64,000 nucleotides of DNA from Coriobacteriia bacterium (GTDB lineage Bacteria; Actinomycetota; Coriobacteriia; Anaerosomatales; PALSA-660), in NCBI GenBank assembly GCA_025361335.1, contig JANYAK010000002.1:1060-65059 (forward strand), read 5' to 3'. Position numbers and translations under genes: made by a program. Below, one piece after another: positions 24,254-40,066 of the stretch (positions are counted from its first letter, which is position 1; each line of letters opens with the position of its first letter). Below the pieces are notes generated by a model. The model saw only the letters and a program-made list of their open reading frames with translations, ran no database searches and was not told the DNA's origin.

Positions 24254-25066
24254 TCACTTGCCGTCCGCGAAGCCGGCGACGACGTACGTGCCCGAGCGCT
24301 GGTCGGTCCTCAGCGTGACGAGCCCCGACTTCTCAGCGTCCTCGAGCAGGGCCGAGAAGGTGCGGTACCCGTACGACGACTCCGCGAAGGCCGGGTTCTT
24401 GCGCTTCATCGTGTCCTTGACCAGCGACGAGTACATCACGTCCTTGTTCTCGCGCTGAAGACCCTGGATCGTCTCGACCAGCAGCTGCATGGCGGGACGC
24501 TTCTCCTTGGGAACGGACTGTGCCGACACCGAGGGCGGCGCCAAGGCTCCCGTGCCCAGGTCCTCGTAGTAGATGAACTCGTCGCAGCTGGCGGCCAGAA
24601 GGTCGGATGTGGAGTCCTTCATGCCCAGGCCGATGACGTTCTTGCCGTTCTCCTTGAGTTTGGCGACCAGCGGCGTGAAGTCGGAGTCGCCCGAGACGAT
24701 GACGAACGTGTCCACGTGATCCTTGCTGTAGCACATGTCCATGGCATCGACGACCAGCTGGATGTCGGCGTGGTTCTTGCCGGTCTTGCCGCGCTCGGGG
24801 ATCTCCATCATCTGGATGCCCGAGTCATGCATGATGACGCGGTACTTCTCGAAGCGGCCCCAGTCGGCGTAGGCACGCCGCACGATGACCTTGCCCTTCT
24901 CGATGAGCCTCTCGAGGATGGCGGTCACGTCCAACATGCCGTTGTTGGCCGACGCGGGTGCGCGGCGCCGGCGGCCCGCGGCGGCGGGCAGCCCGTCGCG
25001 CTCGTAGCCCAAGGCCAGGTTCTCGAAATCGATGAATACGGCGAGCGAGTGCGCCTCGTCAGCCAT
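24254..25066 (-). CDS. NYN-domain (PIN-like) protein with C-terminal OST-HTH/LOTUS domain
   Basis: 270 aa. Has LAVFIDFENL...AD..L..D.......D.FVIVSGDSDF.PLV.KL.E.GK.V NYN motifs. The C-terminal ~70 aa resemble LOTUS (YGY.TFSALL...SGLV.L). Confidence 0.8.
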   Translation of the reverse strand: MADEAHSLAVFIDFENLALGYERDGLPAAAGRRRRAPASANNGMLDVTAILERLIEKGKVIVRRAYADWGRFEKYRVIMHDSGIQMMEIPERGKTGKNHADIQLVVDAMDMCYSKDHVDTFVIVSGDSDFTPLVAKLKENGKNVIGLGMKDSTSDLLAASCDEFIYYEDLGTGALAPPSVSAQSVPKEKRPAMQLLVETIQGLQRENKDVMYSSLVKDTMKRKNPAFAESSYGYRTFSALLEDAEKSGLVTLRTDQRSGTYVVAGFADGK

Positions 25067-25193
25067 GTGTGTCCCCTCACAGGTCGGTACGCGGCGCAGT
25101 CGATGGCGCGCCGCCTCTCACTGGCGATGGTACTACTACTGCCCATCCTCTTGCGCGCAGAAACCCTCTGGGGTATCGTGCGGTTGGCACAAC

Positions 25194-25209
25194 ATTCGCA
25201 TATTCGCAT
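25194..25209. repeat. Perfect tandem 8-bp direct repeat ATTCGCAT-ATTCGCAT in the divergent NYN/arsR intergenic region
   Basis: Read directly at 25194-25201 and 25202-25209, about 40 nt upstream of the ArsR start. Candidate operator or promoter element. Confidence 0.5.
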
Positions 25210-25250
25210 GTTCATAGAACCCAAGCCGGTCAACGGCCCTGCCGGGAGCG

Positions 25251-25589
25251 ATGATGACGGACTCGAGTGACTTCTACTGCCTGCATTCCGAGATGTGCAA
25301 GACGCTTGCGAACGAGAAGCGCCAGCGCATACTCGACGCCCTGCGTGATGGCGAGCTGACGGTCTCGGACATCCAGGCGCGCACCGGGATCGCGCAGGCC
25401 ACCCTCTCCCAGCATCTGGGCATCATGCGCTCGAAGGGCATGCTCATCTCGCGCCGCGACGGCGCTCACGTCCACTACTTCCTGTCCAACGCGAAGATCC
25501 TGCAGGCGTTCGACCTCATCAGCGAGGTTCTCGCCGAGCAGATGGATGTACGCAAGGAAGCCATCGACAGCGCGCTCGGCGAGAGGTGA
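25251..25589 (+). CDS. ArsR/SmtB-family transcriptional regulator
   Basis: 112 aa. LANEKRQRILDAL..GELTVSDIQ...GIAQATLSQHL..M...G....RRDG..V.Y is a winged-HTH of the ArsR type. Confidence 0.9.
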   Translation: MMTDSSDFYCLHSEMCKTLANEKRQRILDALRDGELTVSDIQARTGIAQATLSQHLGIMRSKGMLISRRDGAHVHYFLSNAKILQAFDLISEVLAEQMDVRKEAIDSALGER

Positions 25590-25662
25590 CGGCAGCAATC
25601 GCGGCATGAGCCGCCGCGGCACGAACGAAGAGGCGACCACGACACGAAGGAGCGGAAAGACG

Positions 25663-26172
25663 ATGTCAGACGCAGCGATGGAAGCGGTATTGGCGGCACC
25701 GCGCAAGAAGAAGCTGACCATGGTCGTGATGAGCGGAGACATGGACAAGCTGTTCGGCGCTTTCATCATCGCCACCGGCGCCGCGGCGATGGGCATGGAA
25801 GTGATCATGTTCTTCACGTTCTGGGGCCTTCGCGCCATCAAGAAGGATGTCCGGACCGGCCAGACCTTCTTCGGCAAGATGCTCGGCCTCATGTACGGCG
25901 GGGACATCTCGAAGTCCGATCCGTCCAAGTTCAGCTTCGGCGGCATGGGCCGGTGGATGTTCGGGAAGATGATGGGTGCGAACAACGTCGCCAAGCTCAC
26001 CGAGCTACGCGACCTTGCCGTGATGCTGGGCGTGGGCCTGTATCCGTGCCAGATGTCCATGGACGTCATGGAGATCCCCGCAGAGTCGTTCATCGACGGC
26101 GTCAAGCCGGCCGTCGGCGTCGGCTTCATGCTCGGCGAGGCCGAGGAGTCCGGGATCCAGTTCTTCATCTAG
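25663..26172 (+). CDS. DsrE2/DsrE3-like sulfur-relay protein (DsrE/DsrF/DrsH-like, DrsE_2 family)
   Basis: ATG at 25663 follows GAAGGAGCGG. KLTMVVMSGDMDKLFGAFIIATGAAAMGMEVIMFFTFWGL...LYPCQMSMDVM...FI matches this family, including the conserved Cys. The upstream part of the 208-aa track ORF overlaps arsR and is discounted. Confidence 0.85.
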   Translation: MSDAAMEAVLAAPRKKKLTMVVMSGDMDKLFGAFIIATGAAAMGMEVIMFFTFWGLRAIKKDVRTGQTFFGKMLGLMYGGDISKSDPSKFSFGGMGRWMFGKMMGANNVAKLTELRDLAVMLGVGLYPCQMSMDVMEIPAESFIDGVKPAVGVGFMLGEAEESGIQFFI

Positions 26173-26228
26173 ACAGCCGGGCGCGCCGCGCCCGCGCCAC
26201 GACGAGCCACCGACCGAAAGGAACGCAC

Positions 26229-26471
26229 ATGTCCGACGAAATCAAGCCCGATCTGGAGCTCGACCTGAAGGGTCTGCTCTGCCCCCTGCCCATGGTCAAG
26301 GTGTCCCAGAGGATCAAGGACGTCCCGGTGGGCGGAGTCATCCGTGCCGTCGCGACCGACCCCGGCGCCATGGCCGACATCCCCGCATGGGCCAAGTCGA
26401 CAGGCAACGAAGTCGTGTCGGCCGGGAAGGTCGGCGGCGAGTTCGTGTTCCTCGTCAAGCGCGTCAAGTAG
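26229..26471 (+). CDS. tusA: TusA/SirA-family sulfurtransferase
   Basis: 80 aa. LDLKGLLCPLPMVK carries the diagnostic CPxP active-site motif. Embedded in the longer track ORF 25953..26471. Confidence 0.9.
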   Translation: MSDEIKPDLELDLKGLLCPLPMVKVSQRIKDVPVGGVIRAVATDPGAMADIPAWAKSTGNEVVSAGKVGGEFVFLVKRVK

Positions 26472-26493
26472 CCGGAAGGACGAACCGAAGTAC

Positions 26494-27219
26494 ATGGAAA
26501 CCTACCTGCAGATCACCTCGGTGTGGGGTGTGTACCTCTCCATCGCGGTGTTCGTCGCGGGGATGGCCTGGCGCATCTGGGAATGGAGCACGACGCCCCG
26601 TTCCCCGATACCGCTGGGCATGTTCCCCAAGCCCAGAACGGGCACCGGGCGGTTCTTCAAGATGTTGAAGGACACGTTCATCGCTCCGCAGTCGTTCCGG
26701 ATCGAGCCGTGGATGTGGCTCGCCGCCATGGCGTTCCATATCGCCGCGCTCGGTGCGTTCGTCGGCCACCTGCGGCTGATCCACGAGTTCCCGTTCCTGC
26801 CCTCGCTGCTGGGCGAAGCCGGCATGAACACGTTCGCCGCCTGGTCCGGGTCGATCGCCGGCGTGCTGATGCTGGGCGCGATCCTGTTCTGGATCGCGCG
26901 GCGCACCACGGGCCCGTACAAGACGATCTCGGTGCCCGAGGACTACCTGCTGCTCGCGCTGCTGTTCGGCGTCGTCATCATGGGCGACCACATGCGCTTC
27001 GTGTACGGCTCGATCGTGCACGCCGCGACGTATCGCGAGTGGTTCCTGAGCCTGCTGGCGTTCAAGCCGGCGTTCCCCGTCGAGCTCACATCGAGCAACG
27101 TCGCGTTCTCGCTGGGGACGCACATGCTGTTCGTCGACCTGTTCCTGATCTACTTCCCGTTCAGCAAGCTCGTGCACACCGTGGGCGCGCTGGCATCCAA
27201 CTACGTGAGGAGTGAGTAG
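26494..27219 (+). CDS. NarI/DsrM/HdrE-like membrane di-haem cytochrome b (quinol-interacting subunit)
   Basis: From METYLQITSVWGVYLSIAVF... About 5 TM helices with conserved His pairs (AFHIAALGAFVGHLRLIH; GDHM...IVH; GTHM...KLVH). Adjoins the DsrK-like gene with a 2-nt gap. Confidence 0.8.
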   Translation: METYLQITSVWGVYLSIAVFVAGMAWRIWEWSTTPRSPIPLGMFPKPRTGTGRFFKMLKDTFIAPQSFRIEPWMWLAAMAFHIAALGAFVGHLRLIHEFPFLPSLLGEAGMNTFAAWSGSIAGVLMLGAILFWIARRTTGPYKTISVPEDYLLLALLFGVVIMGDHMRFVYGSIVHAATYREWFLSLLAFKPAFPVELTSSNVAFSLGTHMLFVDLFLIYFPFSKLVHTVGALASNYVRSE

Positions 27220-27221
27220 CC

Positions 27222-28520
27222 ATGGCTGACGCCACAACGACCGAAGCCACCGAGCTCGCCACCCTCGCGGGTGTCATCGACAAGAAGATGACGCGCCAGC
27301 TCAAACAGTATTTGGACCTCTGCGCTCGCTGCGCGATCTGCAAGGACGCGTGCCACCAGTACGTGGCGACGCAGGACGTGAAATACCTGCCCGCCTACCG
27401 CGCGGAACTGATCCGGCGCATCTACAAGAAGTACTTCGACAAGACCGGCCGTTTCGTGCCGGCGCTGTACGAAGGCCGCGATCCCGACGAGAACCTGCTC
27501 GACGAGCTCTACGAGACGACGTACGCGTGCACCGGCTGCCGACGCTGCATGTACTTCTGCCCCTTCTCCATCGACACGCAGTTCATCCTGTCGGTGGCCA
27601 AAGCGATGCTGATCGCGGCGGGCAGGGGCAACGAGATGCTCGGCCAGCTCGCCGACGCCGCCATCTTCAAGGGCGACAACATGGAGATGTTCCACGACGT
27701 GATCGTGGACGGCTTCAAGGACGTCGAGAAGGAGGTCCAGGAGATCACCGGCGACCCCACGGCCGAGATCCCCGTCGACAAGCAGGGCGCCGACATCCTG
27801 TACGTCGCGCTCGCCGGGGCGCACTCCATCCGGCCCGCCGCGGTCATCTTCCACGAAGCCAAGGAGTCCTGGACGCTGTCACTGTTCGAGGCCGCCAACT
27901 ACGGCTTCTTCTTCGGCGACCCCGTCAAGGCCCGCAAGATCGCCGACCGCTTCATGGACGAGGCCGTGCGCCTCGGCGTGAAGGAGGTCGTGATCACCGA
28001 GTGCGGTCACGCGTATCGCGTCGCGGAGATCTTCCACGAGGCCTGGGCGGGCAAGAAGCACCCCTTCAAGGTGACCCACGTGCTCGAGAAGATCGACGCC
28101 TACATCAAGGACGGCCGCATCAAGGTCTCCAAGGCAATCGAGTTGCCGATCACCTATCACGACCCCTGCCAGATCGGTCGCAACGGCGGCATCTTCGAGC
28201 AGCCGCGCGACATCGTGAAGGCCATCAGCAAGGACTTCCGGGACATGACGCCCAACCGCCAGGAGCAGTGGTGCTGCGGCGGCGGCGGCGGGATCGTGGC
28301 CATCGACGAGATGAACGAGTTCCGCCTCAAATCCGGTATGAAGAAGGTCGAGCAGATCCGCGCGACGGGCGCCAAGATCGTGGCCAGCCCCTGCGAGAAC
28401 TGCAGGCTCCAGATGGAGGGGCTCGACGAAGTGCACCAGCTCGGCGTCCGCATCGCGGCGATCATGGACTTGGTCGTCGAGTCCATGCCGCTGAAGGGGC
28501 GCGACGCCGCGAAGGTCTGA
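27222..28520 (+). CDS. DsrK/HdrD-like Fe-S (CCG-domain) heterodisulfide-reductase-type catalytic subunit
   Basis: 432 aa. Two ferredoxin-type motifs (CARCAICKDAC, CTGCRRCMYFCP) plus two CCG-type Cys-rich regions (ITECGHAY...DPCQIGRNGG; WCCGGGGG...SPCENC). Confidence 0.85.
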   Translation: MADATTTEATELATLAGVIDKKMTRQLKQYLDLCARCAICKDACHQYVATQDVKYLPAYRAELIRRIYKKYFDKTGRFVPALYEGRDPDENLLDELYETTYACTGCRRCMYFCPFSIDTQFILSVAKAMLIAAGRGNEMLGQLADAAIFKGDNMEMFHDVIVDGFKDVEKEVQEITGDPTAEIPVDKQGADILYVALAGAHSIRPAAVIFHEAKESWTLSLFEAANYGFFFGDPVKARKIADRFMDEAVRLGVKEVVITECGHAYRVAEIFHEAWAGKKHPFKVTHVLEKIDAYIKDGRIKVSKAIELPITYHDPCQIGRNGGIFEQPRDIVKAISKDFRDMTPNRQEQWCCGGGGGIVAIDEMNEFRLKSGMKKVEQIRATGAKIVASPCENCRLQMEGLDEVHQLGVRIAAIMDLVVESMPLKGRDAAKV

Positions 28521-28546
28521 CGTCGGCATACTCCGCTCCCTCTCAA

Positions 28547-28581
28547 GGGGCCGACATCGGGATACGCCCGGTGTCGGCCCC
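28547..28581 (+). terminator. GC-rich hairpin downstream of the dsrK-like gene (intrinsic-terminator-like)
   Basis: GGGGCCGACA...TGTCGGCCCC, perfect 10-bp arms, with further pairing possible in the 15-nt loop. It is followed by TT and sits 27 nt after the stop. Confidence 0.55.
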
Positions 28582-28600
28582 TTCGCGTATGCTGTCGGTC

Positions 28601-30316
28601 ATGGCTCACACACCCGACATGCGACCCTCCCGGCGACCTGCGGCACGCCGAAGCGCGACGGCAGGCAGGCGGCCATCGCGCGCGGTGAGGCTGGCGATCA
28701 CGCTCGGGTTCTTGGTCGCCCTCTTCGCGGCGGCCGCGTGGGGTCTGTCCCGCTTCGCCTCCGGCGCCGCGCCCGCTCCCGCGGCGGTCGTGAAAACGAC
28801 CGCCACCGCCTCCCCGATCAAGCCCGCGAAGCCCGCCATCGACGCCGCTCTCGAGGCGGCACGCAGCTCCATCGTGTTCGGCTCGTTCCTTGGGGACGGG
28901 AACCGCCGCACGTACGGCCAGGGGCCGGCGCCCAAGAGCCTCAACCTCATCTGGAAGGTCAAGCTGGGTTCCGGGAAGACACGGCGCAAGTTGGACGACA
29001 AGCCGGTGTCGTGGGCGGGCAACGGCTGGACGGGCCAGTGCACCGTGGTGAACGAGGCCGGCCGCGACTACCTTTTGGTAGGGGCGTACGACCACAACCT
29101 GAGGCGCATCGACGCGCTGACGGGGAACGTCATCTGGACGTCCCTGTTCGACGATGTCATCAAGGGCACGAACACGGTCTTCGCCAACCCGCATCCCACG
29201 GGCGACGAGGATCGCATCATCGTGGCCGCCGGGTCCCGCCGCGGATCGGACTACAAGGTCGGCGACCCCCGGATCGCACCGTTCCGGGCGGTCTCGTTCG
29301 CCACCGGCCGGGAGCTGTGGCGCTTCCCGATACCCAAGACACCGCAGTACAGCCAGGATGTCGACTCCTCGTCGCTGCTGGTCGACGACACGCTCTATGT
29401 TCCTGTCGAGTCCGGCTACGTCTACGGGCTCGACCCCAGCCGAACCCAGCCGTGGCTCGACTGGGTCTCGCCGGTCCAGCGGTACCGATCCCCCGAGCTG
29501 TGGACCGCGGCCGACGTCGCGACGCACAAGGACATCGGTGGCGCGAACATCGCCATCGAGGCTTCCGTCTCTCGCATCGGGTCGACCCTCTACCAGCCCT
29601 CGGGCGCGGGGCACATCTACGGGCTGCGCCTCCCTGACCTCAGGGTCGTGTGGGACTACCGCACCGGGTCCGACATCGACGGGACCGCGGCCGTGACCCG
29701 CGACAACAAGCTCGTCTGCACCATCGAGAAGCAGTACATCGCCGGGCACGGCGGCGCCATGATGCTCGATCCGAGCAGACCGCCCGAGCAGGCGACCATG
29801 TGGTACTTCCCGACCCCGGACCACGGCATCGGCGAGTGGGCCGGCGGCAGCGTCGGGTCCGCGGCCATCAACGACGAGACGAACAAGGATGGTTCCCGGC
29901 CGGCGCTGGCCGCGTTCACGTCGGTGGACGGCAACCTCTACGTCGTCTCGCAGGACACGATGGCGCCCAAGAAGGTGCCCCGCTTCGACGGCACGGGTGC
30001 CTACCCCACGCCGGTGGAGGTGTTCCACGGCTCCATCGGCGGATCGATCTCGACCCCCGCATTCGTGGGCGACACGATCGTCGCGGCCGGTTACGGCAAT
30101 GCGGTCGAGCTGTTCCGGGTCGTGTACACCCCGGCCGCCCAGGGCGGATCCGGCGTCGAACTTCCCGCGCGCGACGGCAGCCGGTGGAAGGTGGCCGTCA
30201 AGCGCGTGGCGAAGTTCAAGGCGGGAGCGGGGTTCGAGGCCACTCCCCTCGTCTGGAAAGGCCGCGTCTACATCGGGTGCCGGGACGGCTGGCTGTACTG
30301 CCTCGGCGACAAGTAG
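28601..30316 (+). CDS. Membrane-anchored PQQ-like/BamB-like beta-propeller repeat protein
   Basis: Arg-rich N-tail, one TM (AVRLAITLGFLVALFAAAAWGL), then repeated ...G.V.W......(Y.G)...D..LY motifs ending GRVYIGCRDGWLYCLG. The start may be 28589 or 28601. The 988-aa track ORF upstream part is in a different frame from dsrK and is discounted. Confidence 0.75.
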   Translation: MAHTPDMRPSRRPAARRSATAGRRPSRAVRLAITLGFLVALFAAAAWGLSRFASGAAPAPAAVVKTTATASPIKPAKPAIDAALEAARSSIVFGSFLGDGNRRTYGQGPAPKSLNLIWKVKLGSGKTRRKLDDKPVSWAGNGWTGQCTVVNEAGRDYLLVGAYDHNLRRIDALTGNVIWTSLFDDVIKGTNTVFANPHPTGDEDRIIVAAGSRRGSDYKVGDPRIAPFRAVSFATGRELWRFPIPKTPQYSQDVDSSSLLVDDTLYVPVESGYVYGLDPSRTQPWLDWVSPVQRYRSPELWTAADVATHKDIGGANIAIEASVSRIGSTLYQPSGAGHIYGLRLPDLRVVWDYRTGSDIDGTAAVTRDNKLVCTIEKQYIAGHGGAMMLDPSRPPEQATMWYFPTPDHGIGEWAGGSVGSAAINDETNKDGSRPALAAFTSVDGNLYVVSQDTMAPKKVPRFDGTGAYPTPVEVFHGSIGGSISTPAFVGDTIVAAGYGNAVELFRVVYTPAAQGGSGVELPARDGSRWKVAVKRVAKFKAGAGFEATPLVWKGRVYIGCRDGWLYCLGDK

Positions 30317-30523
30317 GCCTCCACTTTCGTCGCGTCAGTACGCTTCCGGCCGCTTCCCGCACGGCGAATTGCCGGTTTCGCCCAGTTCTGTCTGGGGGGA
30401 CAATGGATAGTGGCGGTTGCGTGGTGTGATGGTGCCCGCCGGACGTGGTAGCCTCTCGGTGTTGTTCGCGCCGTGCGGAGGCCGAAGATGCGTGCATGTG
30501 CATCTTGCGACGACGGGAGCGCG

Positions 30524-31993
30524 ATGCGGATCGGACGCTTCATCGGCGGGGCTGTCGCAGCCTTGGCATTGTCGGTCGCTGTCACGTTGGGTGGCTGCGC
30601 CGCACCGAAGGCGACCCCGACGGCTCAGCATCCGTCCATCCCCGCGGGCAAGACCTGCGCGGACTGCCACGCCAAGGATCACACGCACCTTCCTCCCTAC
30701 GTGGGCGCGTGCGAGACGTGTCACGTGCTCACGTCCTGGCGCATCGTCGTCTACAAGCACAAGAACCCGGACCTCGACATGGGCATCCACGGAGTCATGG
30801 GATGCCGCCGATGCCACACCGAGGGATCCCCGGTGCTCCCGACCACGTGCCCCGCGTGTCACACCGCTCCGCACGCTGGGTGGCAGGACTGCGCGAAGTG
30901 CCACCAACCGCTCACGTTCCTTGTGAGACGGCCGCCTCCGCCAGGACACCTGTCGCTCCTGGGTGGGCACTCGAACCTGACGTGCCTCGAATGCCATGCG
31001 ACGCCCCAACCGCCCGCCACGCCCCGGACCTGCGCCTCGTGCCACGGCACCCATCACGGCGGGCTCGCCGGGTGCGAGCGCTGCCACGATCCGGCGCGAG
31101 GGTGGACGCCGCTCGCCTTCGACCACAACGTGTTCTTCCGGCTCACCGGCATCCATAAGACCCTCGCGTGCGGCCGATGCCATCCGGACGGGAGATTCGC
31201 CAACACGCCGATCCGCTGCGTGAGTTGCCACGGGGTCAGGCATGGCGGCCTGACCAACTGCGCGCGCTGCCACACCACGGCGCGATTCAAGCCGTCCACG
31301 TTCCGTCACTCGCGCGTCTTCCCGCTGTCGCCGGGACCCCATGCGCGCCTTAGGTGCTCGCGATGCCATCCCCGCAACCTGTACGCGCACGTCACAGGCC
31401 GCAACTGCGTCGGATGCCACGGCCGCGTCCACGGCATGAGCACGTGCACGGCGTGCCACACAAGGACGGGCGCGGTCGCCTCGAACTGGAACCACTCGAT
31501 CTTCTTCGCGCTGACCGGGGCCCACAGGTCGCTCGCCTGCAGCGCATGCCACGGCAGTCCGTTGCGCCCGGCCGCCGGCACGCGTTGCGTCTCGTGCCAC
31601 GGCACGAAGCATGGCGGCGTGACGAACTGCGACTTCTGCCATACCACGACGTCGTTCGTGCCCATCCACGCGATCACCCATCCGAACGGCATCCCGCTCG
31701 CGGGGCATCACGGTTCGCTCTCAGGGTGCGCGGAGTGCCACCACACGCCCCTGAACTTCGTCTCGGCGCCTCGCGCCTGCGTGGAATGCCATGCGGGCGA
31801 CGTGCCGCATGTCGGCCCTTCGGACTGCGTCAGATGCCACTACCCGGTGGCGTCGTTCGCGACTCTGCACTTCACCCATCCCTCGGTCACGCCGCACACC
31901 TCCACCCGGTTCCCGTGCGACTTCTGCCACGACTTCCACAACTTCACAGTTCCTCGCAGCGTGATCTGCGTTATGTGCCACCCGGCCTTCTAA
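30524..31993 (+). CDS. Lipoprotein multihaem cytochrome c with 22 CXXCH motifs
   Basis: Signal peptide MRIGRFIGGAVAALALSVAVTLGG|C (lipobox). I counted 22 CXXCH motifs in ~465 mature residues, arranged largely as repeated three-motif modules (e.g. CGRCH-CVSCH-CARCH; CSRCH-CVGCH-CTACH; CSACH-CVSCH-CDFCH). GGGAG RBS before the ATG at 30524. Confidence 0.9.
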   Translation: MRIGRFIGGAVAALALSVAVTLGGCAAPKATPTAQHPSIPAGKTCADCHAKDHTHLPPYVGACETCHVLTSWRIVVYKHKNPDLDMGIHGVMGCRRCHTEGSPVLPTTCPACHTAPHAGWQDCAKCHQPLTFLVRRPPPPGHLSLLGGHSNLTCLECHATPQPPATPRTCASCHGTHHGGLAGCERCHDPARGWTPLAFDHNVFFRLTGIHKTLACGRCHPDGRFANTPIRCVSCHGVRHGGLTNCARCHTTARFKPSTFRHSRVFPLSPGPHARLRCSRCHPRNLYAHVTGRNCVGCHGRVHGMSTCTACHTRTGAVASNWNHSIFFALTGAHRSLACSACHGSPLRPAAGTRCVSCHGTKHGGVTNCDFCHTTTSFVPIHAITHPNGIPLAGHHGSLSGCAECHHTPLNFVSAPRACVECHAGDVPHVGPSDCVRCHYPVASFATLHFTHPSVTPHTSTRFPCDFCHDFHNFTVPRSVICVMCHPAF

Positions 31994-32128
31994 GCGTGCG
32001 CCGGACCGCCGGACGACGAGCGGCTCCGCCCACTCGGCGCGGCGCTTGCATACGGAAGGCTGCGCCGATACTGATGGTAGTGTGAATGTGTGCTCGACCT
32101 GCAATCGTTCCCATTGGAGACGCGACCT

Positions 32129-33622
32129 ATGAGCAGGATCCTCTTCGTCACTCCGCCCTACACGTGCTGGGGCGTCCAGACCATCGGCAACTGGCCGCCG
32201 CTGCAGCTGGCCTATCTCGCCGGCGCCGCACTCAAGGCCGGGCACGAGGCCAAGATCTTCGACGCGATGAACAAGAAACTCGGCTTCGACGAGATCCGGG
32301 CGCAGATCGAGGACTACCGGCCCGACTTCGTCATGAGCCTCGACTACCTGCCGGTGACCGGAGCGATCAGCACCGCGACCGTCCCCGCCGCGCTGGAGGC
32401 CCTCGCCGTCGCCAAGCAGGTCGACCCCACCGTCATCACGATGATCGGTGGCCCGCATCCCACGTTCATGTACGACGAGATCCTGCGCGACCCGGCGAAC
32501 CACGCTGACTACGTCCTGCGCGGAGAAGCCGAGGAGACGCTGGTGGACCTGATGGCCACCCTGCCGAGCGGGTCGCCGGACGCCGTCCCCGGCATCGCCT
32601 TCCTGCGCGACGGCGACGTGATCGCGACTCCCCTGCGACAGCACATCGCCGATCTCGACACGCTCGAGGTCGCATGGCACCTCCTCGACTGGGAGGACTA
32701 TCACTACAACGTCGAGCCCTGGGGCCGCATGGCGTCGGTGCTGACCTCGCGCGGCTGCATGATGGGGTGCGCCTTCTGCAGCCAACGCCTGTTCTGGCGC
32801 GGAGACTGGCGCGCGCGCGACCCCAAGGGTGTCGTCGACGAGATGCGTCTCCTGATCGAGAAGTACGAGGTCGAGTTCATCACGCTCATCGACGCGTACC
32901 CCACGAGGGACCGTGAGCGCTGGATCCAGCTGCTGGATCTGCTCATCGAGGCCGACTTGGGCGCTCACCTTCTCATCGAGACGCGGGTCGAGGACATCAT
33001 CCGCGACGCGGATATCCTCCCCAAGTACCGCCAGGCCGGCATCATCCACGTCTACCTCGGCGCGGAGACCAGCACCGACGAGATGCTCAACAGCTTGAAC
33101 AAGGGGACCACGATCGACCAGAACAAGCAGGCCATCGACCTGCTGAAGGCCAACGACATCATGATCGAGGCGTCGTTCATGATCGGCTTCCCCAACGAGA
33201 CGTGGGAGACGGTCAAGGCGACCGCGAACGAGGCGATCCGGCTGAACCCCGACATCGCGGTGTTCCCCGTGATCACCCCGATGCCGTTCACGCCCCTGTA
33301 CGAGGAGATGAAGGACCGCATCCGCGTCTTCGACTACTCGAAGTACAACCTGGTCACGCCGATCATCGAGCCGTACGCGATGTCGCTGGACGACATCACC
33401 ATCGCGCTCGGGCGCTGCTATATGACCTTCTACGCGAACAAGATGACCGAGATCCTGGCGCTCCCGGAAGGCTTCAAGCGCCGCTACATGCTGAGCGCGA
33501 TGAAACAGATGATGAAGGACTACGGCGAGCACTTCGACTTCCTCGGCATCGGCATGGCCAAGATGTCCGCGATGCCCAAGAAGATGGGCGAAGCGATGAA
33601 GGGTCGTACGCCGTCCGAGTAG
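32129..33622 (+). CDS. B12-binding-domain radical SAM protein (class B rSAM), substrate unknown
   Basis: N-terminal cobalamin-binding-like Rossmann segment (ILFVTPPY...LAYLAGAALKAGHE.KIFD), then the radical SAM cluster motif SRGCMMGCAFCSQ (CxxxCxxC). The start at MSRIL is preceded by GGAGA. Confidence 0.85.
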   Translation: MSRILFVTPPYTCWGVQTIGNWPPLQLAYLAGAALKAGHEAKIFDAMNKKLGFDEIRAQIEDYRPDFVMSLDYLPVTGAISTATVPAALEALAVAKQVDPTVITMIGGPHPTFMYDEILRDPANHADYVLRGEAEETLVDLMATLPSGSPDAVPGIAFLRDGDVIATPLRQHIADLDTLEVAWHLLDWEDYHYNVEPWGRMASVLTSRGCMMGCAFCSQRLFWRGDWRARDPKGVVDEMRLLIEKYEVEFITLIDAYPTRDRERWIQLLDLLIEADLGAHLLIETRVEDIIRDADILPKYRQAGIIHVYLGAETSTDEMLNSLNKGTTIDQNKQAIDLLKANDIMIEASFMIGFPNETWETVKATANEAIRLNPDIAVFPVITPMPFTPLYEEMKDRIRVFDYSKYNLVTPIIEPYAMSLDDITIALGRCYMTFYANKMTEILALPEGFKRRYMLSAMKQMMKDYGEHFDFLGIGMAKMSAMPKKMGEAMKGRTPSE

Positions 33623-33679
33623 ACGGACCGGCGCACGCCCCCCGACCCATCCGGCCCTCGCCGACGACAACGGGACCCG

Positions 33680-34519
33680 CTACCCCTCGGCGCCGCCGAT
33701 GTAGCCGGCGTGGATGGTGTTGAACACGGTCGGGATGCCCACGAGGCAGAAGAGCGCGATCGGCATGGCGATGATCGCGAACCACGCGAGCCTCTCGCCC
33801 TTCCAGTGCCGCATGAAGCGCAGATGCAGATAGATCGCATAGATGAGCCACACGATGAGACTCCACGTCTCGATCGGGTCCCAACTCCAGTAGCGACCCC
33901 ACGACTCGTTCGCCCAGATCGCGCCTGTGGCGATCATGATCCCCCACAGCAGGAAGCCGGCGAGCACGAGACGAGCGATGAGGCCCTCGACGACCTCTTG
34001 CTCCGGCATCCGCTCCAGGCGCTTGGCCCACTTCCCGCTCGTCGATCGCTGCCTTATAACGAACACGACCGCGAAACCGAACGACGCCGCGAAGGCCGCG
34101 AAGGCCACGTTCGCGAAGGCCACATGGATGAACAGCCAGTAGCTCGCGAGAGACGCCGTTATCGGGAAGTCGGCCTTGGATGCGAGCATCGAGCCGCCAA
34201 GAAGGAGCACCGCCACCGGCATGATCCCTATGCCCGTGGCGTGGAGACGGGGGTTGCGCCATGCGGCGATCACGAAGAAGGCCACTGTGCACAGCGTGAG
34301 CGCGTTGGCGACCTCGTAGTAGCCGATGTAGGGGCCATGGCCCAGACGGGCCCATCGCACGCCCAGCGCGACGATCTGGGGCACCAGACCCAGCGCCGAG
34401 ACGAGCACCGCCCGACGTGTGAGCACCTCCCTGTTCAGGGCGACACCGAACACGAACATCCCCGTCGCGACCACATAGAACGTGAGCGCCACCCACATGA
34501 ACACGATCTCCAGAGTCAC
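33680..34519 (-). CDS. ccsA: Cytochrome c biogenesis System II haem-handling protein CcsA/ResC
   Basis: 279 aa polytopic protein with the WWD-type motif WANESWGRYWSWDPIETWS and flanking conserved His residues. Confidence 0.92.
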   Translation of the reverse strand: MTLEIVFMWVALTFYVVATGMFVFGVALNREVLTRRAVLVSALGLVPQIVALGVRWARLGHGPYIGYYEVANALTLCTVAFFVIAAWRNPRLHATGIGIMPVAVLLLGGSMLASKADFPITASLASYWLFIHVAFANVAFAAFAASFGFAVVFVIRQRSTSGKWAKRLERMPEQEVVEGLIARLVLAGFLLWGIMIATGAIWANESWGRYWSWDPIETWSLIVWLIYAIYLHLRFMRHWKGERLAWFAIIAMPIALFCLVGIPTVFNTIHAGYIGGAEG

Positions 34520-35952
34520 GATACGCTCCCCTTCCCATCACTGCCGAGCGCGCGACGCAGTTCGCGTTCGACCTCGCCGCGACTGGTCGGCACGTTTCTC
34601 CACAGGCGCAGGGCGACGTCGAGCCTCACGCCCTCGGACCCCTCTGTGGCGGTCACAAGGACGAGTTGCTGGCGCGCCAGCGTCGTCACGCTCAGGCCGA
34701 CGAGCGCCACGACCATCACAGCGTAGATGACCGGTATCGTCGGATCGTCCACGAGCGACAGCCACGAGAACCATCCGATGTCCACCAGCCGGACGGCGCC
34801 GCCCTCGGGCAGGTCGACCGACTCGCCCTTCCGCACGATCCCGTCGAACAGCAGACCGCCGTCCGCCGAAGTCACATGCAGCCGGGCAGACGGCCGCTTC
34901 GGTATCCACTCACCAAAGCCCTGTCCCGCCCGATCGAGTGGCACGGTGACCGACATCTTCATCAGTATCCTGCCGGCCGAATCCCGACGCGACAGGAGGC
35001 CGATGGGGCTCGTTCCCTCCGTGGCCGTCTGGGAGAAGTCCACCAGCCGGATGACGCGCCCGCTCTCCGCCCCGGCCTTGTCTTGGAAGCTGAGTGTCGC
35101 CGACAGCCCGCACGCGGGGGCGTTGATCGCCAGCGATCCAGTGTGGAGCATGTGGTTGGGGTAGATGCGCTGGGTGACCACGGCCTCACCCGCACCGTCC
35201 AGGACCGAGATCGTCGGTACCGCTCCGCGGTCGATCCCCCCGGTCTTGTAGTCGGGATCGAAGGAGTCGAGGCGGATGCTGCGCGTCGCCACCCCTCCAT
35301 AGTGCCACGGCCCCGAGTTGGACAAGGCGTACGACGCCGATACGTCGGCAAGCGTCTGCCCGACCGCCACTGGCATCATCCCCTCCGAACGCACCAGCTG
35401 CCCGACGAGCACCGCGGCGATCAAAGCGACCAGTGCCCAGTGGAAGACCGCACTGCCCCACGCGGACCAGGCCGGGGACACGGCCGTCAGCATGTCCCCC
35501 CGGCGTCTCATCCTGATGCCGAGGCGCTCCAGCGCTCCCGATGCGATCTCGAGCGCGCGCTGACCCGAAAGGGCTGGATCGCATACGATCCCGAGGTCGG
35601 GTGCCTGGATCGGCGACAGCGGATCGGCAGCGGCGGCCGCGGTCAGCGCGCGCGCCCTGAACCGTGCGACCTTCGCGCGCCTCCACGCGCACGCGCTCGT
35701 GCACATCGCCAGCAGGAGCGCGGCGGCCCAGAATACGGGCGCCGTGAATGCCTGATGGAGGCCGAGCCACCTCACGACGGGCGAGAAGGAAGGGTTGGTC
35801 GCGTCCCATGCAATGACGGAGGAACTCGAGTCCGCACCCTGGGTGACGACCGTCGCCACCATCGACCAGACTCCTATGAACAGCAGGAGTCCGACGGCGG
35901 TACGCATCGACGCGAGGAACCCGACGACGACGCGCCATGCCCTGCCGATCAT
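34516..35952 (-). CDS. resB: Cytochrome c biogenesis protein ResB/CcsB
   Basis: From MIGRAWRVVVGFLASMRTAVGLLLFIG (typical ResB N-terminus), with a large extracytoplasmic loop and a C-terminal TM. ATGA overlaps occur at both gene junctions. The track ORF N-terminal extension is discounted. Confidence 0.88.
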   Translation of the reverse strand: MIGRAWRVVVGFLASMRTAVGLLLFIGVWSMVATVVTQGADSSSSVIAWDATNPSFSPVVRWLGLHQAFTAPVFWAAALLLAMCTSACAWRRAKVARFRARALTAAAAADPLSPIQAPDLGIVCDPALSGQRALEIASGALERLGIRMRRRGDMLTAVSPAWSAWGSAVFHWALVALIAAVLVGQLVRSEGMMPVAVGQTLADVSASYALSNSGPWHYGGVATRSIRLDSFDPDYKTGGIDRGAVPTISVLDGAGEAVVTQRIYPNHMLHTGSLAINAPACGLSATLSFQDKAGAESGRVIRLVDFSQTATEGTSPIGLLSRRDSAGRILMKMSVTVPLDRAGQGFGEWIPKRPSARLHVTSADGGLLFDGIVRKGESVDLPEGGAVRLVDIGWFSWLSLVDDPTIPVIYAVMVVALVGLSVTTLARQQLVLVTATEGSEGVRLDVALRLWRNVPTSRGEVERELRRALGSDGKGSVS

Positions 35953-36587
35953 TTGACCTCGCCTATGGCTTTGACACTCACCGAGTCGACGACCCACACA
36001 CCCTTCGGGTTCTGCACGACCGTGTAGATCGTCTCGTACGTGGCGGAATACGGACCCGCCACGGTCTTGCCGACGTCTTTGATGGAGACGTAACGGTACG
36101 TCCATTTCTCCTTCGCTGGAACGAGTGTGCTCGTGGAACCGGTGCTCGGGTTGCCCAATACGAGGGAGTCGAGCGTCTGATCGATGACCCTCGACTTCTG
36201 GAGATTGAGCTGGACATACGAGTCGACGCGCACTTCCTGTCCGGAGGACATCGTGGGCGTCGCGACCGTCGATTGGGCGATCCGATAGGCGTACGAGGTC
36301 CAGTCGAGGTACGAACGGATCGCCTTGTCCGGCGTGGACAGTACCCACGGCTTCGGCGAGTTCTCCAGCGCCTGGCGGGAGATGATCACCGTCGACGCCG
36401 GTCCGGCCATGCCCTTGCCCGCCGTGGTGCTCGCGTTGCCGACACCGGCACCGAGGCCCTTAGGCGCGCTCGAACATCCGGGCAAGAGCAAGAGCGCCAA
36501 GAGCAGCGGCGCCACTGCGCCGAGGGCCCCTGCGTGTCCAGCGGACGAGTGATTCCTTCTGAGAGAACCGTACAGTGCCCTCACCAT
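35949..36587 (-). CDS. Hypothetical lipoprotein co-transcribed with resB-ccsA
   Basis: Signal peptide and lipobox ...APLLLALLLLPG|CSS. No recognisable catalytic motif and no further Cys. The start at 36587 is uncertain (weak RBS spacing). Confidence 0.6.
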   Translation of the reverse strand: MVRALYGSLRRNHSSAGHAGALGAVAPLLLALLLLPGCSSAPKGLGAGVGNASTTAGKGMAGPASTVIISRQALENSPKPWVLSTPDKAIRSYLDWTSYAYRIAQSTVATPTMSSGQEVRVDSYVQLNLQKSRVIDQTLDSLVLGNPSTGSTSTLVPAKEKWTYRYVSIKDVGKTVAGPYSATYETIYTVVQNPKGVWVVDSVSVKAIGEVK

Positions 36588-36689
36588 CCTTGCGATCCGT
36601 CGGCCCGCGCCCGAGGGCCGGTCCGAGAAGGAATGACCTTCGCACCTCGACCACACCGTGCACCGTGCTCGAGAGCATTATGAACGAAC

Positions 36690-36715
36690 GGGGGCGGGCA
36701 TTGCTGCCCGCCCCC
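36690..36715 (-). terminator. Strong GC hairpin downstream of the giant cytochrome gene
   Basis: GGGGGCGGGCA-TTGC-TGCCCGCCCCC, perfect 11-bp arms, ~45 nt after the stop at 36761. On the minus strand it is followed by GTTCGTTCATAA. Confidence 0.6.
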
Positions 36716-36760
36716 TTCGACATCCAGACTCCAGCGATCAGAGCCTTGAACCAACGAGCG

Positions 36761-39700
36761 TCACTTCCAGAACGGGACCTCGGACCACGTGCCGCCGCCG
36801 ACCGCTGTGCGACCAGCAACGGGGTTGTCCGCGACACCCTCAGAGGTGCCACCGGTGTCGGAGTGCGTGAGACCGGCGGACGTGCAAGCGGTGCAGTTGT
36901 TCTGGATCGCCTCACTAGAATACAGGGCGTTGGGGCTCGTGTCGGGAAGCCACTCGGAACCTGTGGCCGTGTCGTCCCAGAGTCCCCACTTCGTCCCGTT
37001 GACACTGTCGTTCGCCTGGAAGGCCGTAGCCGGACCGATCACGAGCTCCTTGAGCGCCGTGCCGGTGGCAGCGATCTTCTCGAGATGGGATGAATACGTC
37101 TTGGCGCTGTTGTTCACGACCACACCCGCGACGGGGTCGACCTCGTTGGCGCCGTTGGTGGTGCCGTTCGGGATGACCGTGCCGACCTGGGCGTAGGTAC
37201 CCGAACCGCCACCCTGCCAGCCCCAGTTACCGCCTGGAACTGCCATGTTCGGGCTGGTGCTGAGCCGGTCGGAACCACTCGACAACCAGTAGTTCGGCAG
37301 GTACCACTGCACCTTGTACGGCGCCGGGTCGGACTCGTACACCAGCAGGCGGGGACGCTTCCAGCCGTGCGGGATGGCGATGTGGCACGAGACGCAGTTG
37401 GCCTGGCCCGTCACCATGTCCGCGTGGTGCTCCATGTGCGCCTCGTTCGAGAAGCCCATGTAGTTCATGTTGTTGCTGCGGAACCCGCGACCATTGCCTT
37501 CGATGCCGAGGCCCTGGAACGAGTTCGTGAGCTTGTGGCACTTCTGGCAGATGAAGCGGCCGGTCTTGACGCCCGCCGAGTAACCGTTGCTGGGATTGGC
37601 CGTCGCCTTGTAGAAGCCACCAGGAAGGACCGTGGCGACGGATGCCGGCACACCGGCGACCGTCTCGGTAGTGATGTTGTCCGGACCCATGTTCACGTAC
37701 GAACCGTACTTGCTGTAGTACGGGTTCGCTGTGCCGCGCGTGGTCTCTATGCTGCGCATGCCGGTCGGGTCGAAACTGGTGATCTCAGCCCGTGTCCAGT
37801 CGTCCGGGAAGTTCGGATCGAGGCCTACCGCGCCCACGTTGGCGCCCTGAGGGCCCATGCTCGAATCGAGGTTGGTGTGGCAGTCCTGGCATCTGACGAC
37901 ACTGCCCCATCCAACGTCCGTGCGGATCATGGACGGTGTGAGACCCTTGCCCGCCAGCGCGGCCGCAGGTGCGTCGGTCGGGTTGAGCGAATAGGAGCCG
38001 TCGACCGTGCCATTCAGTGCCAAGCCCTTGCTGTCGCTCCAGAACACGCCGGACGTCGGAAGCGGCCACTCCTGCGTGATCGTTTCCTCGGCGCTGCTCT
38101 TGACGACGACGCCTTCAGTACCGTTCCACAGGGTCTTGGCTCCGATGGTCGGGAAGCCCTGAGCGTTGTGGCCTGATGCCACCGGACCGGTCTTGGAGCC
38201 GAACGCGTGCGGCGCGTACGTCCTGCCGTTGTGGCAATCCGCGCACTCGGCGGTACCCGCCGCCAGCAGCGGCGTCATCTCGCCGCGGAGGTAGGACGTC
38301 GTGTGACAGAAGCACCCGAGTGCCGTATGCACGGTCGGGAGATCGGTACCGTGACACGTGGTGCAGGCGGAACTGTTCGCGCCTGTGGCGTTCCTGTGGA
38401 CGAACCCGTGGAAGGTCTCCAGGTCAGGATGGCATGTCCCGCATGCGATCTGGGTGGGCACGACTCCAGGCGTCGTATGGCATACCGCGCAACCGGGAGG
38501 ATCATCGCCCGTCAGGTGCAGGAGACTCTTGTCGCTGGAGTTGTGGCACGCCGTGACAAAGCAGGAACCCGAGATGGCATGTCCCACGTTGCCTGCGGCG
38601 TGAACCGTAGCGTAGCTGATATGGCAGGACTCGCACGTGGCGTTCGCGCCGTCGACGACGTTATCGGTGAGCGTGACGCTCACGAAACGGTTGGCGGTCG
38701 GCGCGTGGCACGCCGCGCAGGTCTTGTGGACGGTCGGTGTGACCAGAGAGGTGCCGTGGCACGCAGCCTGGGTGCACTTGAAGTCGCCAGTGCTGGTGCT
38801 CGGGATCACCGCGTGGTTACCGTGCGGGCCAAGGGCGCCATGGCACGTGATGCAGTTGCTGCGCGGCGTGACCCCGTTGGCGTGGCACACTCGGCAGCCT
38901 GACGTCGTGGCCGTCTTCGCGGGCGGGCCCTCGTGGATCGTCGCGAGGTCACCGTCGGCGTGGCAACCTGACTGGGTGCATGTCAGGGCAGGCAGCGCGT
39001 GAGCGACGGTCGTACCAGCATGCGGGTACGAGTCGATGGCACCGGTCGTGTAGAAGTGGCAGTCGATGCACGAATCTGATCCGGCCGAGATGGCTGCCAT
39101 GACCTGCGGATTGGTGCTCTCGTGGCACGTGATGCAGTTCAGGTACGGCCCGGGGCCGACCGGCCAGCGATAGTGCTCCTGCGTGAGCGACGAAAGGTGA
39201 CAGCCGCTCTGTGTGCAGAACCTGGTCGTGGAGACGTGCCAAGGCATGTCCGTGAGGGTGACGGTGAAAGAGACCGTGTGGTGCGGTGTCTCAGTATTGC
39301 CGGCCGCGTCCACGGACCAGAACTCGAGGATATGGACATCGAGGCCGTTCGTGGTGACCAGCCCGCCGGTCCCCGGGAGTCCGTCGAGTATCCAGTTGAT
39401 CCTCGCCACGCCCGAGCCGCCGAGGTTGTCCGTCGCGGTCAGATGGATGATGGCTGTGAGGAAGTACCTGGGTACGACGTCGGATGTCGTGGTCGGGGCG
39501 ACGGTGTCGCTGCCGATCGGGCCCGCGAGATAGAAGACAGGGCCTTCGAAGCGGTACGTTGCCGACAGTGAGGCTATGACTTGGTCCTTCTCGGCCGCAT
39601 TCGCCGTGAAGAAGTGGGTTCCGTTCCTCAAGTTGAGGAATCGGAACACCGGCGTCGAGGCGACCGGATCGAGCGAGACGTCGTAGTAGGAGATGCCCTC

Positions 39701-40066
39701 TGGGCGGAACGCGGGCAGATTCGCCAAGATGTAGGCTCTCTCCCCCTCGTTCGCCGTGTAGAAATGCTCTCCGGTCGCCAGATTGAAGAAGCGGTAGACC
39801 GGCATGTTGTTGCGGGGGTTGTCCGTATCGACGTACCAGCCGACCCCCTCGAAGCGGTAGGACGCGGAGAGGGTCGCTATGACCTGGTCCTTCTCCGCCG
39901 CATTCGCCGTGTAGAAGTGCGATCCGTTCGAGATGTTGAAGAACCGATACACAGGCAGGATGCCTGCCGCGTGCGCGACGCCTGGAAGGCCCAAGGCCAA
40001 CACCAGGACAGCAACGAACGCGCCGAGCCACAGGGCCCGGCTGGGCCGAACAGATTCTCTACTCAT
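36761..40066 (-). CDS. Large secreted multihaem cytochrome c with N-terminal DUF5648-type repeats and an Ig-like domain
   Basis: Start MSRESVRPSRALWLGAFVAVLVLALGLPGVAHA (signal peptide; GAGGGAG RBS). Three repeats of PV(Y/F)RF(F/L)N...G.HF(Y/F)TAN..E. Ig-like GSGVARINWILDG...FWSVDAAGNTE. 13 CXXCH, 4 CX4CH (CTQSGCH x2, CTQAACH, CFVTACH) and one CFCH. Confidence 0.9.
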   Translation of the reverse strand: MSRESVRPSRALWLGAFVAVLVLALGLPGVAHAAGILPVYRFFNISNGSHFYTANAAEKDQVIATLSASYRFEGVGWYVDTDNPRNNMPVYRFFNLATGEHFYTANEGERAYILANLPAFRPEGISYYDVSLDPVASTPVFRFLNLRNGTHFFTANAAEKDQVIASLSATYRFEGPVFYLAGPIGSDTVAPTTTSDVVPRYFLTAIIHLTATDNLGGSGVARINWILDGLPGTGGLVTTNGLDVHILEFWSVDAAGNTETPHHTVSFTVTLTDMPWHVSTTRFCTQSGCHLSSLTQEHYRWPVGPGPYLNCITCHESTNPQVMAAISAGSDSCIDCHFYTTGAIDSYPHAGTTVAHALPALTCTQSGCHADGDLATIHEGPPAKTATTSGCRVCHANGVTPRSNCITCHGALGPHGNHAVIPSTSTGDFKCTQAACHGTSLVTPTVHKTCAACHAPTANRFVSVTLTDNVVDGANATCESCHISYATVHAAGNVGHAISGSCFVTACHNSSDKSLLHLTGDDPPGCAVCHTTPGVVPTQIACGTCHPDLETFHGFVHRNATGANSSACTTCHGTDLPTVHTALGCFCHTTSYLRGEMTPLLAAGTAECADCHNGRTYAPHAFGSKTGPVASGHNAQGFPTIGAKTLWNGTEGVVVKSSAEETITQEWPLPTSGVFWSDSKGLALNGTVDGSYSLNPTDAPAAALAGKGLTPSMIRTDVGWGSVVRCQDCHTNLDSSMGPQGANVGAVGLDPNFPDDWTRAEITSFDPTGMRSIETTRGTANPYYSKYGSYVNMGPDNITTETVAGVPASVATVLPGGFYKATANPSNGYSAGVKTGRFICQKCHKLTNSFQGLGIEGNGRGFRSNNMNYMGFSNEAHMEHHADMVTGQANCVSCHIAIPHGWKRPRLLVYESDPAPYKVQWYLPNYWLSSGSDRLSTSPNMAVPGGNWGWQGGGSGTYAQVGTVIPNGTTNGANEVDPVAGVVVNNSAKTYSSHLEKIAATGTALKELVIGPATAFQANDSVNGTKWGLWDDTATGSEWLPDTSPNALYSSEAIQNNCTACTSAGLTHSDTGGTSEGVADNPVAGRTAVGGGTWSEVPFWK

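Follow-up and report, generated by a model that had tools for sequence, protein, structure and literature searches.

A 22-haem lipoprotein of c7-like tri-haem modules from a Coriobacteriia bacterium: a candidate electron relay between the membrane and the cell wall

A gene at positions 30524-31993 (plus strand) of a 64,000-nucleotide stretch of DNA from a Coriobacteriia metagenome-assembled genome (MAG; GenBank assembly GCA_025361335.1, contig JANYAK010000002.1, positions 1,060 to 65,059; the whole stretch is referred to here as the window) encodes a 22-haem protein, which is a variant of the already known modular tri-haem 'haem wire' cytochromes. The protein is predicted to be a lipoprotein, and its mature part would be almost wholly a chain of 22 bis-His c-type haems, arranged as six c7-like modules with a truncated unit at either end. 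It probably serves, in a reading held with moderate confidence, as a membrane-tethered multi-haem electron relay between a membrane module resembling the Tmc, Hmc and DsrMK complexes and cytochromes bound to the cell wall. A preliminary description, made from the letters of the DNA alone, had recognised the haem motifs and the anchor; the operon encoding DsrMK-, TusA- and DsrE2-like proteins, the cytochrome maturation genes and the wall-anchored candidate partner cytochromes are new to the present analysis.

Modular architecture and haem ligation

The 489-residue translation (30524-31990, plus strand) contains 22 CXXCH motifs, at residues 45, 63, 94, 109, 123, 154, 170, 184, 216, 232, 246, 278, 295, 308, 339, 355, 369, 402, 419, 435, 465 and 482, confirming the earlier count of about one per 21 residues; CX3-4CH and CXXCK variants are absent from it. 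There are 45 Cys, 52 His and 5 Met in total, and all Cys lie inside the motifs (44) except for the lipobox Cys25. The predicted haem density of the mature part (about 464 residues), at one haem per approximately 21 residues, is above that of c7 (about 24 residues per haem) and of Geobacter GSU1996 (about 26). The gaps between consecutive motifs follow a regular rhythm (18; 31, 15, 14; 31, 16, 14; 32, 16, 14; 32, 17, 13; 31, 16, 14; 33, 17, 16; 30, 17), which delineates six complete tri-haem modules of about 61 residues, each with motifs A, B and C, and a two-motif unit at either end. The end units resemble truncated modules, with motif A missing from the N-terminal one (B-C) and motif C from the C-terminal one (A-B). 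Full modules share 27-46% pairwise identity and a consensus of F.H..FF.LTG.H..L.C..CH, about 11 residues, C..CHG..HGG, about five residues and C..CH. Both the spacing and the alignment thus agree with the at least six similar modules and two-motif caps described previously. The units, with their distal His residues, are as follows.

30599-30724, plus strand: N-terminal truncated unit (residues 26-67), two motifs (B- and C-type), distal His36 and His55
30725-30904, plus strand: tri-haem module 1 (residues 68-127), distal His79, 89 and 117
30905-31087, plus strand: tri-haem module 2 (residues 128-188), distal His142, 149 and 178
31088-31273, plus strand: tri-haem module 3 (residues 189-250), distal His201, 211 and 240
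31274-31459, plus strand: tri-haem module 4 (residues 251-312), distal His262, 273 and 303
31460-31642, plus strand: tri-haem module 5 (residues 313-373), distal His324, 334 and 363
31643-31840, plus strand: tri-haem module 6 (residues 374-439), distal His386, 396 and 429
31841-31990, plus strand: C-terminal truncated unit (residues 440-489), two motifs (A- and B-type), distal His452 and His458

The conservation of ligands was read from alignments of 30 and of 57 orthologues. Outside the motifs, exactly 22 His residues are conserved in at least 96% of the 57 sequences, each full module contributing three of them and each end unit two, so that the supply of distal ligands suffices for 22 haems, as the preliminary description had presupposed; the other eight non-motif His are unconserved. 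Conserved Met residues are lacking, with at most 23% conservation in the same 57 sequences. This ligand set allows bis-His coordination of every haem, and the simplest reading of the sequence would be 22 bis-His low-spin haems without an open coordination site, which points to electron transfer rather than catalysis.

Shuffling the protein's own residues 20,000 times gave a mean of 0.43 and a maximum of 4 CXXCH motifs. In addition, just two of the 323 six-frame open reading frames (ORFs) of at least 100 residues in the window contain any CXXCH, namely the present one with 22 and an ORF at 36764-40198 on the minus strand with 13. A chance origin of the 22 motifs is excluded. At the DNA level the modules appear as diverged repeats with a period of 186 nucleotides, the copies being just 60-78% identical, and TRF detected no tandem array in the gene. 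The duplication is therefore old; a recent duplication is ruled out, and the internal duplication suggested earlier stands in that the repeats align, but as an ancient event.

The gene and its membrane anchor

30524-31993, plus strand: 22-haem lipoprotein gene (489 residues; alternative start ATG 30488, giving 501 residues)
30524-30598, plus strand: signal peptide and lipobox LGG-C, Cys25 being the predicted lipidated N-terminus

The possibility that the gene is spurious, having either arisen by chance in high-GC DNA or merely shadowing a gene on the opposite strand, is refuted: such DNA yields long ORFs in several frames, an antisense ORF of 458 residues is present at 30335-31711 (minus strand) and a naive filter on GC content at the third codon position chose antisense fragments within the cytochrome and propeller genes, but the plus frame has a GC content by codon position of 0.60/0.59/0.86, its product has a best Pfam match of E=6e-25 and hundreds of full-length homologues with conserved Cys and His columns, and shuffled sequences come nowhere near its number of motifs. 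A word-indexed search found at least 941 homologues, and one database record (P0001) is 100% identical to the protein. The start codon is more ambiguous and, as far as the sequence allows, could be either ATG 30488, preceded by GGAGG-N6, or ATG 30524, preceded by GGGAG-N4. The 501-residue form (P0241) is recorded by NCBI and Logan and is also encoded in assembly GCA_043724725.1. The lipobox is retained whichever start applies, and the signal peptide and lipobox (TLGG-C) noted previously are thus present in both forms.

The N-terminus, MRIGRFIGGAVAALALSVAVTLGG-C, matches the lipoprotein pattern, and the basic N-terminal region, hydrophobic stretch and lipobox ([LVI][ASTVIG][GAS]C) expected of a signal peptidase II substrate are found in MRIGRF...VAVTLGG-C, with Cys25 as the lipobox Cys. 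Gly24-Cys25 is conserved in at least 90% of the 10 closest orthologues, and remoter orthologues carry either an L[AVT]GC lipobox or else an uncleaved N-terminal transmembrane (TM) helix. The presence of a lipobox or TM anchor across the orthologues indicates that membrane tethering is a conserved trait, and the 22-haem protein is predicted, from its anchor motif, to be a lipoprotein. Coriobacteriia are Gram-positive monoderms, and the source of the window, a Coriobacteriia MAG, bears out the monoderm host that had been proposed; the protein would therein be tethered on the outer face of the cytoplasmic membrane.

Relationship to class III cytochromes

The repeats align not just to one another but also to c7-like units, as anticipated in the preliminary description. 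The Pfam family PF14522 (Cytochrome_C7) matches the protein over seven stretches with 87.2 bits (cutoff 24.8, E=6.3e-25), and PF14537 (Cytochrom_c3_2) matches with 50.8 bits. A profile built from 54 modules aligns by hhalign with Geobacter PpcA with a probability of 87.8% (E=3e-6), motifs A, B and C falling on haems I, III and IV. Among solved structures, the best matches of the profile are to nine-haem NhcA (19hc, 6e-9) and 16-haem HmcA (2e84, 1e-7), followed by STC, GSU1996 (3ov0, 7e-5) and the c7 proteins (4e-3 to 6e-2); a single-sequence search of the PDB returned a weak match to a reaction-centre cytochrome alone (E=0.22). These profile matches identify the protein as a class III (c3/c7 superfamily) polymer that is not close to any characterised member. 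A weak NCBIfam match (E=1e-3), to a UshA-like (seleno)protein, almost certainly arises as an artefact of the motifs, and the multihaem selenoenzyme MccSep, with five haems and a catalytic function, is unrelated.

The modules resemble c7 (PpcA-E of Geobacter and the Desulfuromonas c7) in their three CXXCH motifs, in their predicted bis-His ligation and in having two distal His upstream of motif A. In PpcA the distal ligands are laid out as H-x2-H before motif I, with a third His just before motif III. This canonical layout is not found in the modules, where the upstream pair is 6-10 residues apart rather than 2, and the third distal His lies four residues past the motif-B His (CxxCHxxxH). Moreover, the spacer between motifs I and III is eight residues shorter than in c7, and the N-terminal part of c7 is left unaligned. 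The domains of GSU1996 have one His-Met haem each, and no such haem per domain is apparent in the 22-haem protein. The model for the Geobacter nanowire tri-haem domain, TIGR04257, reaches 14.6 bits against a cutoff of 40, which places the protein outside that Geobacter family.

Geobacter GSU1996 and GSU0592 (12 haems) and GSU2210 (27 haems) are likewise single polypeptides of concatenated tri-haem c7-type units (PMC10138318). With these the 22-haem protein has in common a very high haem density, the match to Cytochrome_C7 and a presumed function in intramolecular electron transfer or storage. It differs in its failure against TIGR04257, its shorter modules, its apparently all bis-His haems and a third distal His placed after motif B and not before it, in its predicted lipid anchoring in a monoderm as against solubility in a diderm periplasm, and in its gene neighbours.

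Relatives of the protein are numerous. An exhaustive search gave 2,229 cluster representatives at E≤1e-3 and 231 at E≤1e-30, and the named matches come from Coriobacteriia, Acidobacteria, Nitrospirota and Sphingomonadales, annotated as 'hypothetical protein' or 'cytochrome C'. A median of 28 CXXCH motifs was found in the 146 further representatives listed, dozens of the listed relatives have 40-80 motifs each, and the largest listed (P0254; 2321 residues, with a Sec signal peptide) has 94 motifs in 31 tri-haem modules with a strict 32/16/25 rhythm. Modular nanowire-like cytochromes with 27 haems have also been discussed for the Desulfuromonadia (PMC11492766). With relatives of up to 94 motifs and the 27 haems of GSU2210, the size of the 22-haem protein is unremarkable; of the earlier proposal of an analogous but longer polymer, the c7-like tri-haem polymer is retained and the emphasis on length is not. 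It is the short module of 61 residues, together with the lipoprotein anchor, that marks an actinobacterial subfamily.

Gene neighbourhood and orthologous loci

The 22-haem gene is the last of an operon in which an arsR gene is followed, in order, by dsrE2, tusA, dsrM-like and dsrK-like genes and a gene for an anchored beta-propeller.

25251-25589, plus strand: ArsR/SmtB (BigR-like) regulator, operon head
25663-26172, plus strand: DsrE2-like sulfur carrier
26229-26471, plus strand: TusA-like sulfur carrier, with a CPLP motif
26494-27219, plus strand: NarI-family membrane cytochrome b (DsrM-like)
27222-28520, plus strand: cytoplasmic CCG/Fe-S protein (DsrK-like), with CCG and Fer4 domains
28601-30316, plus strand: TM-anchored PQQ_2/BamB-like beta-propeller

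The DsrM-like protein matches PF02665 (E=1.6e-15) and, best first, the models of DsrM (2e-22), NarI (2e-9) and TmcC (2e-7), all below their equivalog cutoffs, and has His82/92 and His210/228 in NarI-like spacing. The DsrK-like protein scores 292 bits with DsrK (5e-87; cutoff 400), 238 with TmcB (2e-70) and 234 with HmcF (3e-69); judged by these scores, it is of the same superfamily as DsrK, TmcB and HmcF and is an equivalog of none. It shares a cluster, at ≥90% identity, with proteins from Coriobacteriia MAGs. The operon therefore holds the pair expected of a Tmc/Hmc/DsrMK-type complex, a NarI-family di-haem cytochrome b and a CCG (HdrD-like) subunit. The cytochrome is linked to these membrane subunits by gene adjacency, in the window and in the locus L019, where the whole operon block recurs with a cytochrome that is 67% identical. 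The beta-propeller gene is directly upstream of the cytochrome gene in all four closest loci (the window, L001, L017 and L019); a PQQ dehydrogenase was rejected for its product (23 bits against a cutoff of 480), which may be a scaffold. Across 25000-33800, no promoter or terminator signal exceeded the level seen in shuffled sequence. The combination of a DsrMK-type module, sulfur carriers and a multihaem cytochrome was not found described.

Orthologous loci were retrieved with 10 close sequences, and derive from MAGs of Coriobacteriia or Actinomycetes and from Coriobacteriaceae EMTCatB1, whose orthologue (L013) is 41% identical. In nine distinct loci (L004, L005, L006, L007, L009, L010, L013, L018 and L022) a protein of 800-1200 residues with 8-9 CXXCH motifs is encoded directly upstream on the same strand. 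All nine of these proteins have Pfam matches to MtrC/MtrF domains II-IV and to cytochrome c552; three CWB2 cell-wall-binding domains are present in five of the nine, including that of EMTCatB1, and DUF5648 in one. A wall-anchored MtrC/NrfA-like multihaem cytochrome is the most frequent neighbour, present at roughly half of all orthologous loci. Within the Coriobacteriia, cultured members of the Anaerosomatales reduce Fe(III), thiosulfate and S0, and their genomes contain 17-18 multihaem cytochrome genes (PMC9686372). Multihaem cytochromes of EMTCatB1 are highly expressed on a biocathode (PMC7943316), although the orthologue in L013 could not be assigned to any of the genes concerned (1d0898, 1c0642 and others).

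Downstream of the 22-haem gene lies a block that includes the two System II cytochrome c maturation genes and a candidate surface partner.

32129-33622, plus strand: B12-binding radical SAM protein, BchE-like (BchE model 414 bits, cutoff 481)
33680-34519, minus strand: CcsA (System II cytochrome c maturation)
34516-35940, minus strand: ResB/CcsB (System II cytochrome c maturation)
35949-36584, minus strand: small lipoprotein (LLLLPG-C), with no Pfam or NCBIfam match
36761-40066, minus strand: secreted multihaem cytochrome of 1101 residues, with 13 CXXCH and 4 CX4CH motifs and DUF5648 repeats; candidate surface partner

The CX4CH motifs of the large cytochrome are CTQSGCH (twice), CTQAACH and CFVTACH; its DUF5648 repeats are N-terminal and it has an OmpL47-type domain. 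DUF5648 is also present on secreted proteases and on a Coriobacteriia multicopper oxidase, suggesting that it is a surface- or wall-binding module. The radical SAM, CcsA, ResB, small lipoprotein and large cytochrome genes are kept as a unit in L024, with the radical SAM gene at 17101-18654 and a 214-residue gene in the position of the small lipoprotein. The radical SAM protein was rejected as a partner of the 22-haem protein, since its gene travels with the ResB/CcsA/large-cytochrome block instead; modification of a cofactor or protein, tied to cytochrome maturation, is a possibility for this BchE-like protein of a non-phototrophic host. Comparison of 24254-41529 with L019, L022 and L017 shows that the segment between the NYN-domain and VTT-domain genes is a variable 'cytochrome island', in which the poly-c7 gene is constant and dsrMK, the propeller, the large cytochromes, a PAS-GGDEF-EAL gene and the maturation genes vary among relatives.

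Proposed electron relay and alternatives

The wire or capacitor function put forward earlier is an analogy with known poly-haem cytochromes. In the relay favoured here, electrons would pass in multiple steps along a 'haem wire' that bridges the gap from membrane to cell wall. The electron partner on the membrane side would be a quinol-linked module, either the DsrM-like cytochrome b or another one. In this organism the presumably co-transcribed DsrM-like di-haem cytochrome b and DsrK/TmcB/HmcF-like Fe-S protein would adopt the arrangement of the Tmc and Hmc complexes, and may tie the wire to menaquinol and/or to the cytoplasmic thiol/persulfide carriers DsrE2 and TusA. At the distal end, wall-associated multihaem cytochromes could trade electrons with extracellular acceptors or donors. 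GSU1996 is a c7 polymer of 12 haems with a length of 12 nm, as given in PMC10138318; by analogy, the 22-haem chain might measure about 20 nm if extended, comparable to a Gram-positive wall.

Several observations weigh against this relay. The association with dsrMK is restricted to the closest clade (the window and L019), and in L022 and L017 the cytochrome occupies the same chromosomal slot without dsrMK. Approximately one in two orthologous loci lacks a neighbouring cytochrome altogether and has unrelated genes there. The 1101-residue cytochrome of the window, 4.8 kb from the 22-haem gene, is on the opposite strand within the separately conserved block seen in L024, and its family differs from the CWB2-type partners with 8-9 motifs, phmmer having matched it to the partner in L018 only. 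With regard to the c7 fold and the extended shape, AlphaFold2 (AF2) models have a pLDDT of about 80 for both the whole protein and one module, but the pTM of 0.38 for the whole makes the geometry between modules uncertain, and searches of the PDB by Foldseek with the whole-protein and single-module models gave zero matches.

A more specific and decidedly tentative proposal is that the poly-c7 lipoprotein and a CWB2- or DUF5648-bearing MtrC/NrfA-like cytochrome form an undescribed two-protein trans-wall conduit of the Coriobacteriia/Actinomycetota, which in this organism would be hard-wired through the DsrMK-like module, DsrE2 and TusA to cytoplasmic sulfur-carrier chemistry. If that were true, extracellular electron exchange would be coupled directly to persulfide/thiol turnover and not just to the quinone pool.

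The 22-haem protein could alternatively be an 'internal' cytochrome c subunit of the Hmc/Tmc type, passing electrons from an extracytoplasmic hydrogenase or formate dehydrogenase through the DsrM/DsrK-like proteins to DsrE2, TusA and a DsrC-like protein so as to reduce thiosulfate or sulfur, extracellular partners playing no part. The operon itself, with dsrE2, tusA, dsrM-like and dsrK-like genes and a BigR-like regulator, conserved in L019, is consistent with such a complex, as are the matches of the DsrK-like protein to TmcB and HmcF, the best structure matches of the module profile being to NhcA and HmcA and not to GSU1996, and the use of H2 or formate by cultured relatives to respire thiosulfate or S0 (PMC9686372). 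Nevertheless, we consider this unlikely: L022 and L017 retain the cytochrome in the same position but without dsrMK, the commonest neighbour is instead a wall-anchored cytochrome, the window genes translated or scanned yielded no recognisable hydrogenase, formate dehydrogenase, dsrAB or dsrC gene, and 22 haems far exceed the needs of a docking subunit.

It is less probable still that the protein acts mainly as an electron store, or capacitor, buffering transient loss of the acceptor, as proposed for the periplasmic poly-haem cytochromes of Geobacter. Such a role would suit the high haem density and the predicted bis-His ligation throughout, 'electron storage' has a precedent for proteins of the GSU1996 type (PMC10138318), and many orthologues are encoded alone, without partners. 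The membrane tether and the frequent pairing with wall-anchored cytochromes argue instead for a fixed place in a chain, although storage and relay could coexist. Finally, a catalytic role, such as the reduction of nitrite, sulfite, polysulfide or tetrathionate, is highly improbable, for although the same superfamily contains multihaem enzymes, every haem has a conserved His as sixth ligand, there is no CXXCK motif, Cys/Lys/Tyr ligand candidate or non-haem domain, and a substrate pocket could not be fitted in at about 21 residues per haem.

Parallels with characterised electron-transfer systems

The membrane-to-wall relay can be compared with two further groups of known systems. HmcA (16 haems) and NhcA (nine haems) of Desulfovibrio are likewise poly-domain class III cytochromes of c3/c7-like units, and the cytochromes of the Hmc/Nhc/Tmc systems are similarly encoded with a NarI-family cytochrome b and a CCG/HdrD-like Fe-S protein. 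In contrast to these systems, the membrane proteins of the window reach none of the equivalog cutoffs and resemble DsrM/DsrK most, HmcB/C/D genes are lacking, DsrE2, TusA and the beta-propeller are additional, and the host is an actinobacterium and not a sulfate reducer. The regular tri-haem repeats also differ from the four unequal c3-like domains of HmcA.

In monoderms, the Thermincola chain (ImdcA, PdcA, CwcA and OcwA) and the Carboxydothermus Smh cytochromes connect the membrane, by way of the wall, with a terminal reductase on the cell surface (PMC7911101 and PMC6703420). That reductase is related to the NrfA/MtrC folds, and the partners encoded beside the orthologues have matches to C552 and MtrC_II-IV as well as wall-binding domains. 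The likeness is one of architecture: unlike in the Thermincola chain, a single 22-haem lipoprotein would stand in for several proteins of 6-10 haems, and the partner cytochromes are anchored by CWB2 or DUF5648 domains.

Other features of the window

Two further features lie outside the cytochrome region. A chemotaxis cluster, read from translations, occupies 5492-15723 on the minus strand and includes CheB, CheA, a methyl-accepting chemotaxis protein (MCP), a PilB/GspE-like ATPase, CheY, CheR and a DUF4388-like protein. An ORF of 988 residues at 57050-60013 (plus strand) has a GC content of 0.94 at the first and 0.70 at the third codon position, and its translation is of low complexity and rich in Arg, Asp and His. 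The real gene probably lies in a different frame or on the other strand, with this ORF as its shadow.

Implications

The passage of electrons through thick Gram-positive walls is known in outline for a few Firmicutes, and the actinobacterial Fe(III) reducers and biocathode colonisers (Anaerosomatales, EMTCatB1) have so far provided just lists of multihaem cytochromes. As the modular haem wire is already known, the analysis suggests that the value of the 22-haem protein lies in its actinobacterial lipoprotein form and in a gene context pointing to a trans-wall conduit and to a link with DsrMK, TusA and DsrE2. A lipid-anchored chain of 22 haems that is repeatedly paired with wall cytochromes, and that may span the wall if extended, is a testable candidate for the link between membrane and wall. 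For protein design, it would offer a compact natural haem wire with all haems predicted to be bis-His at approximately 21 residues each. In addition, the DsrMK/TusA/DsrE2 operon suggests an unexplored tie between sulfur-carrier redox chemistry and extracellular electron transfer.

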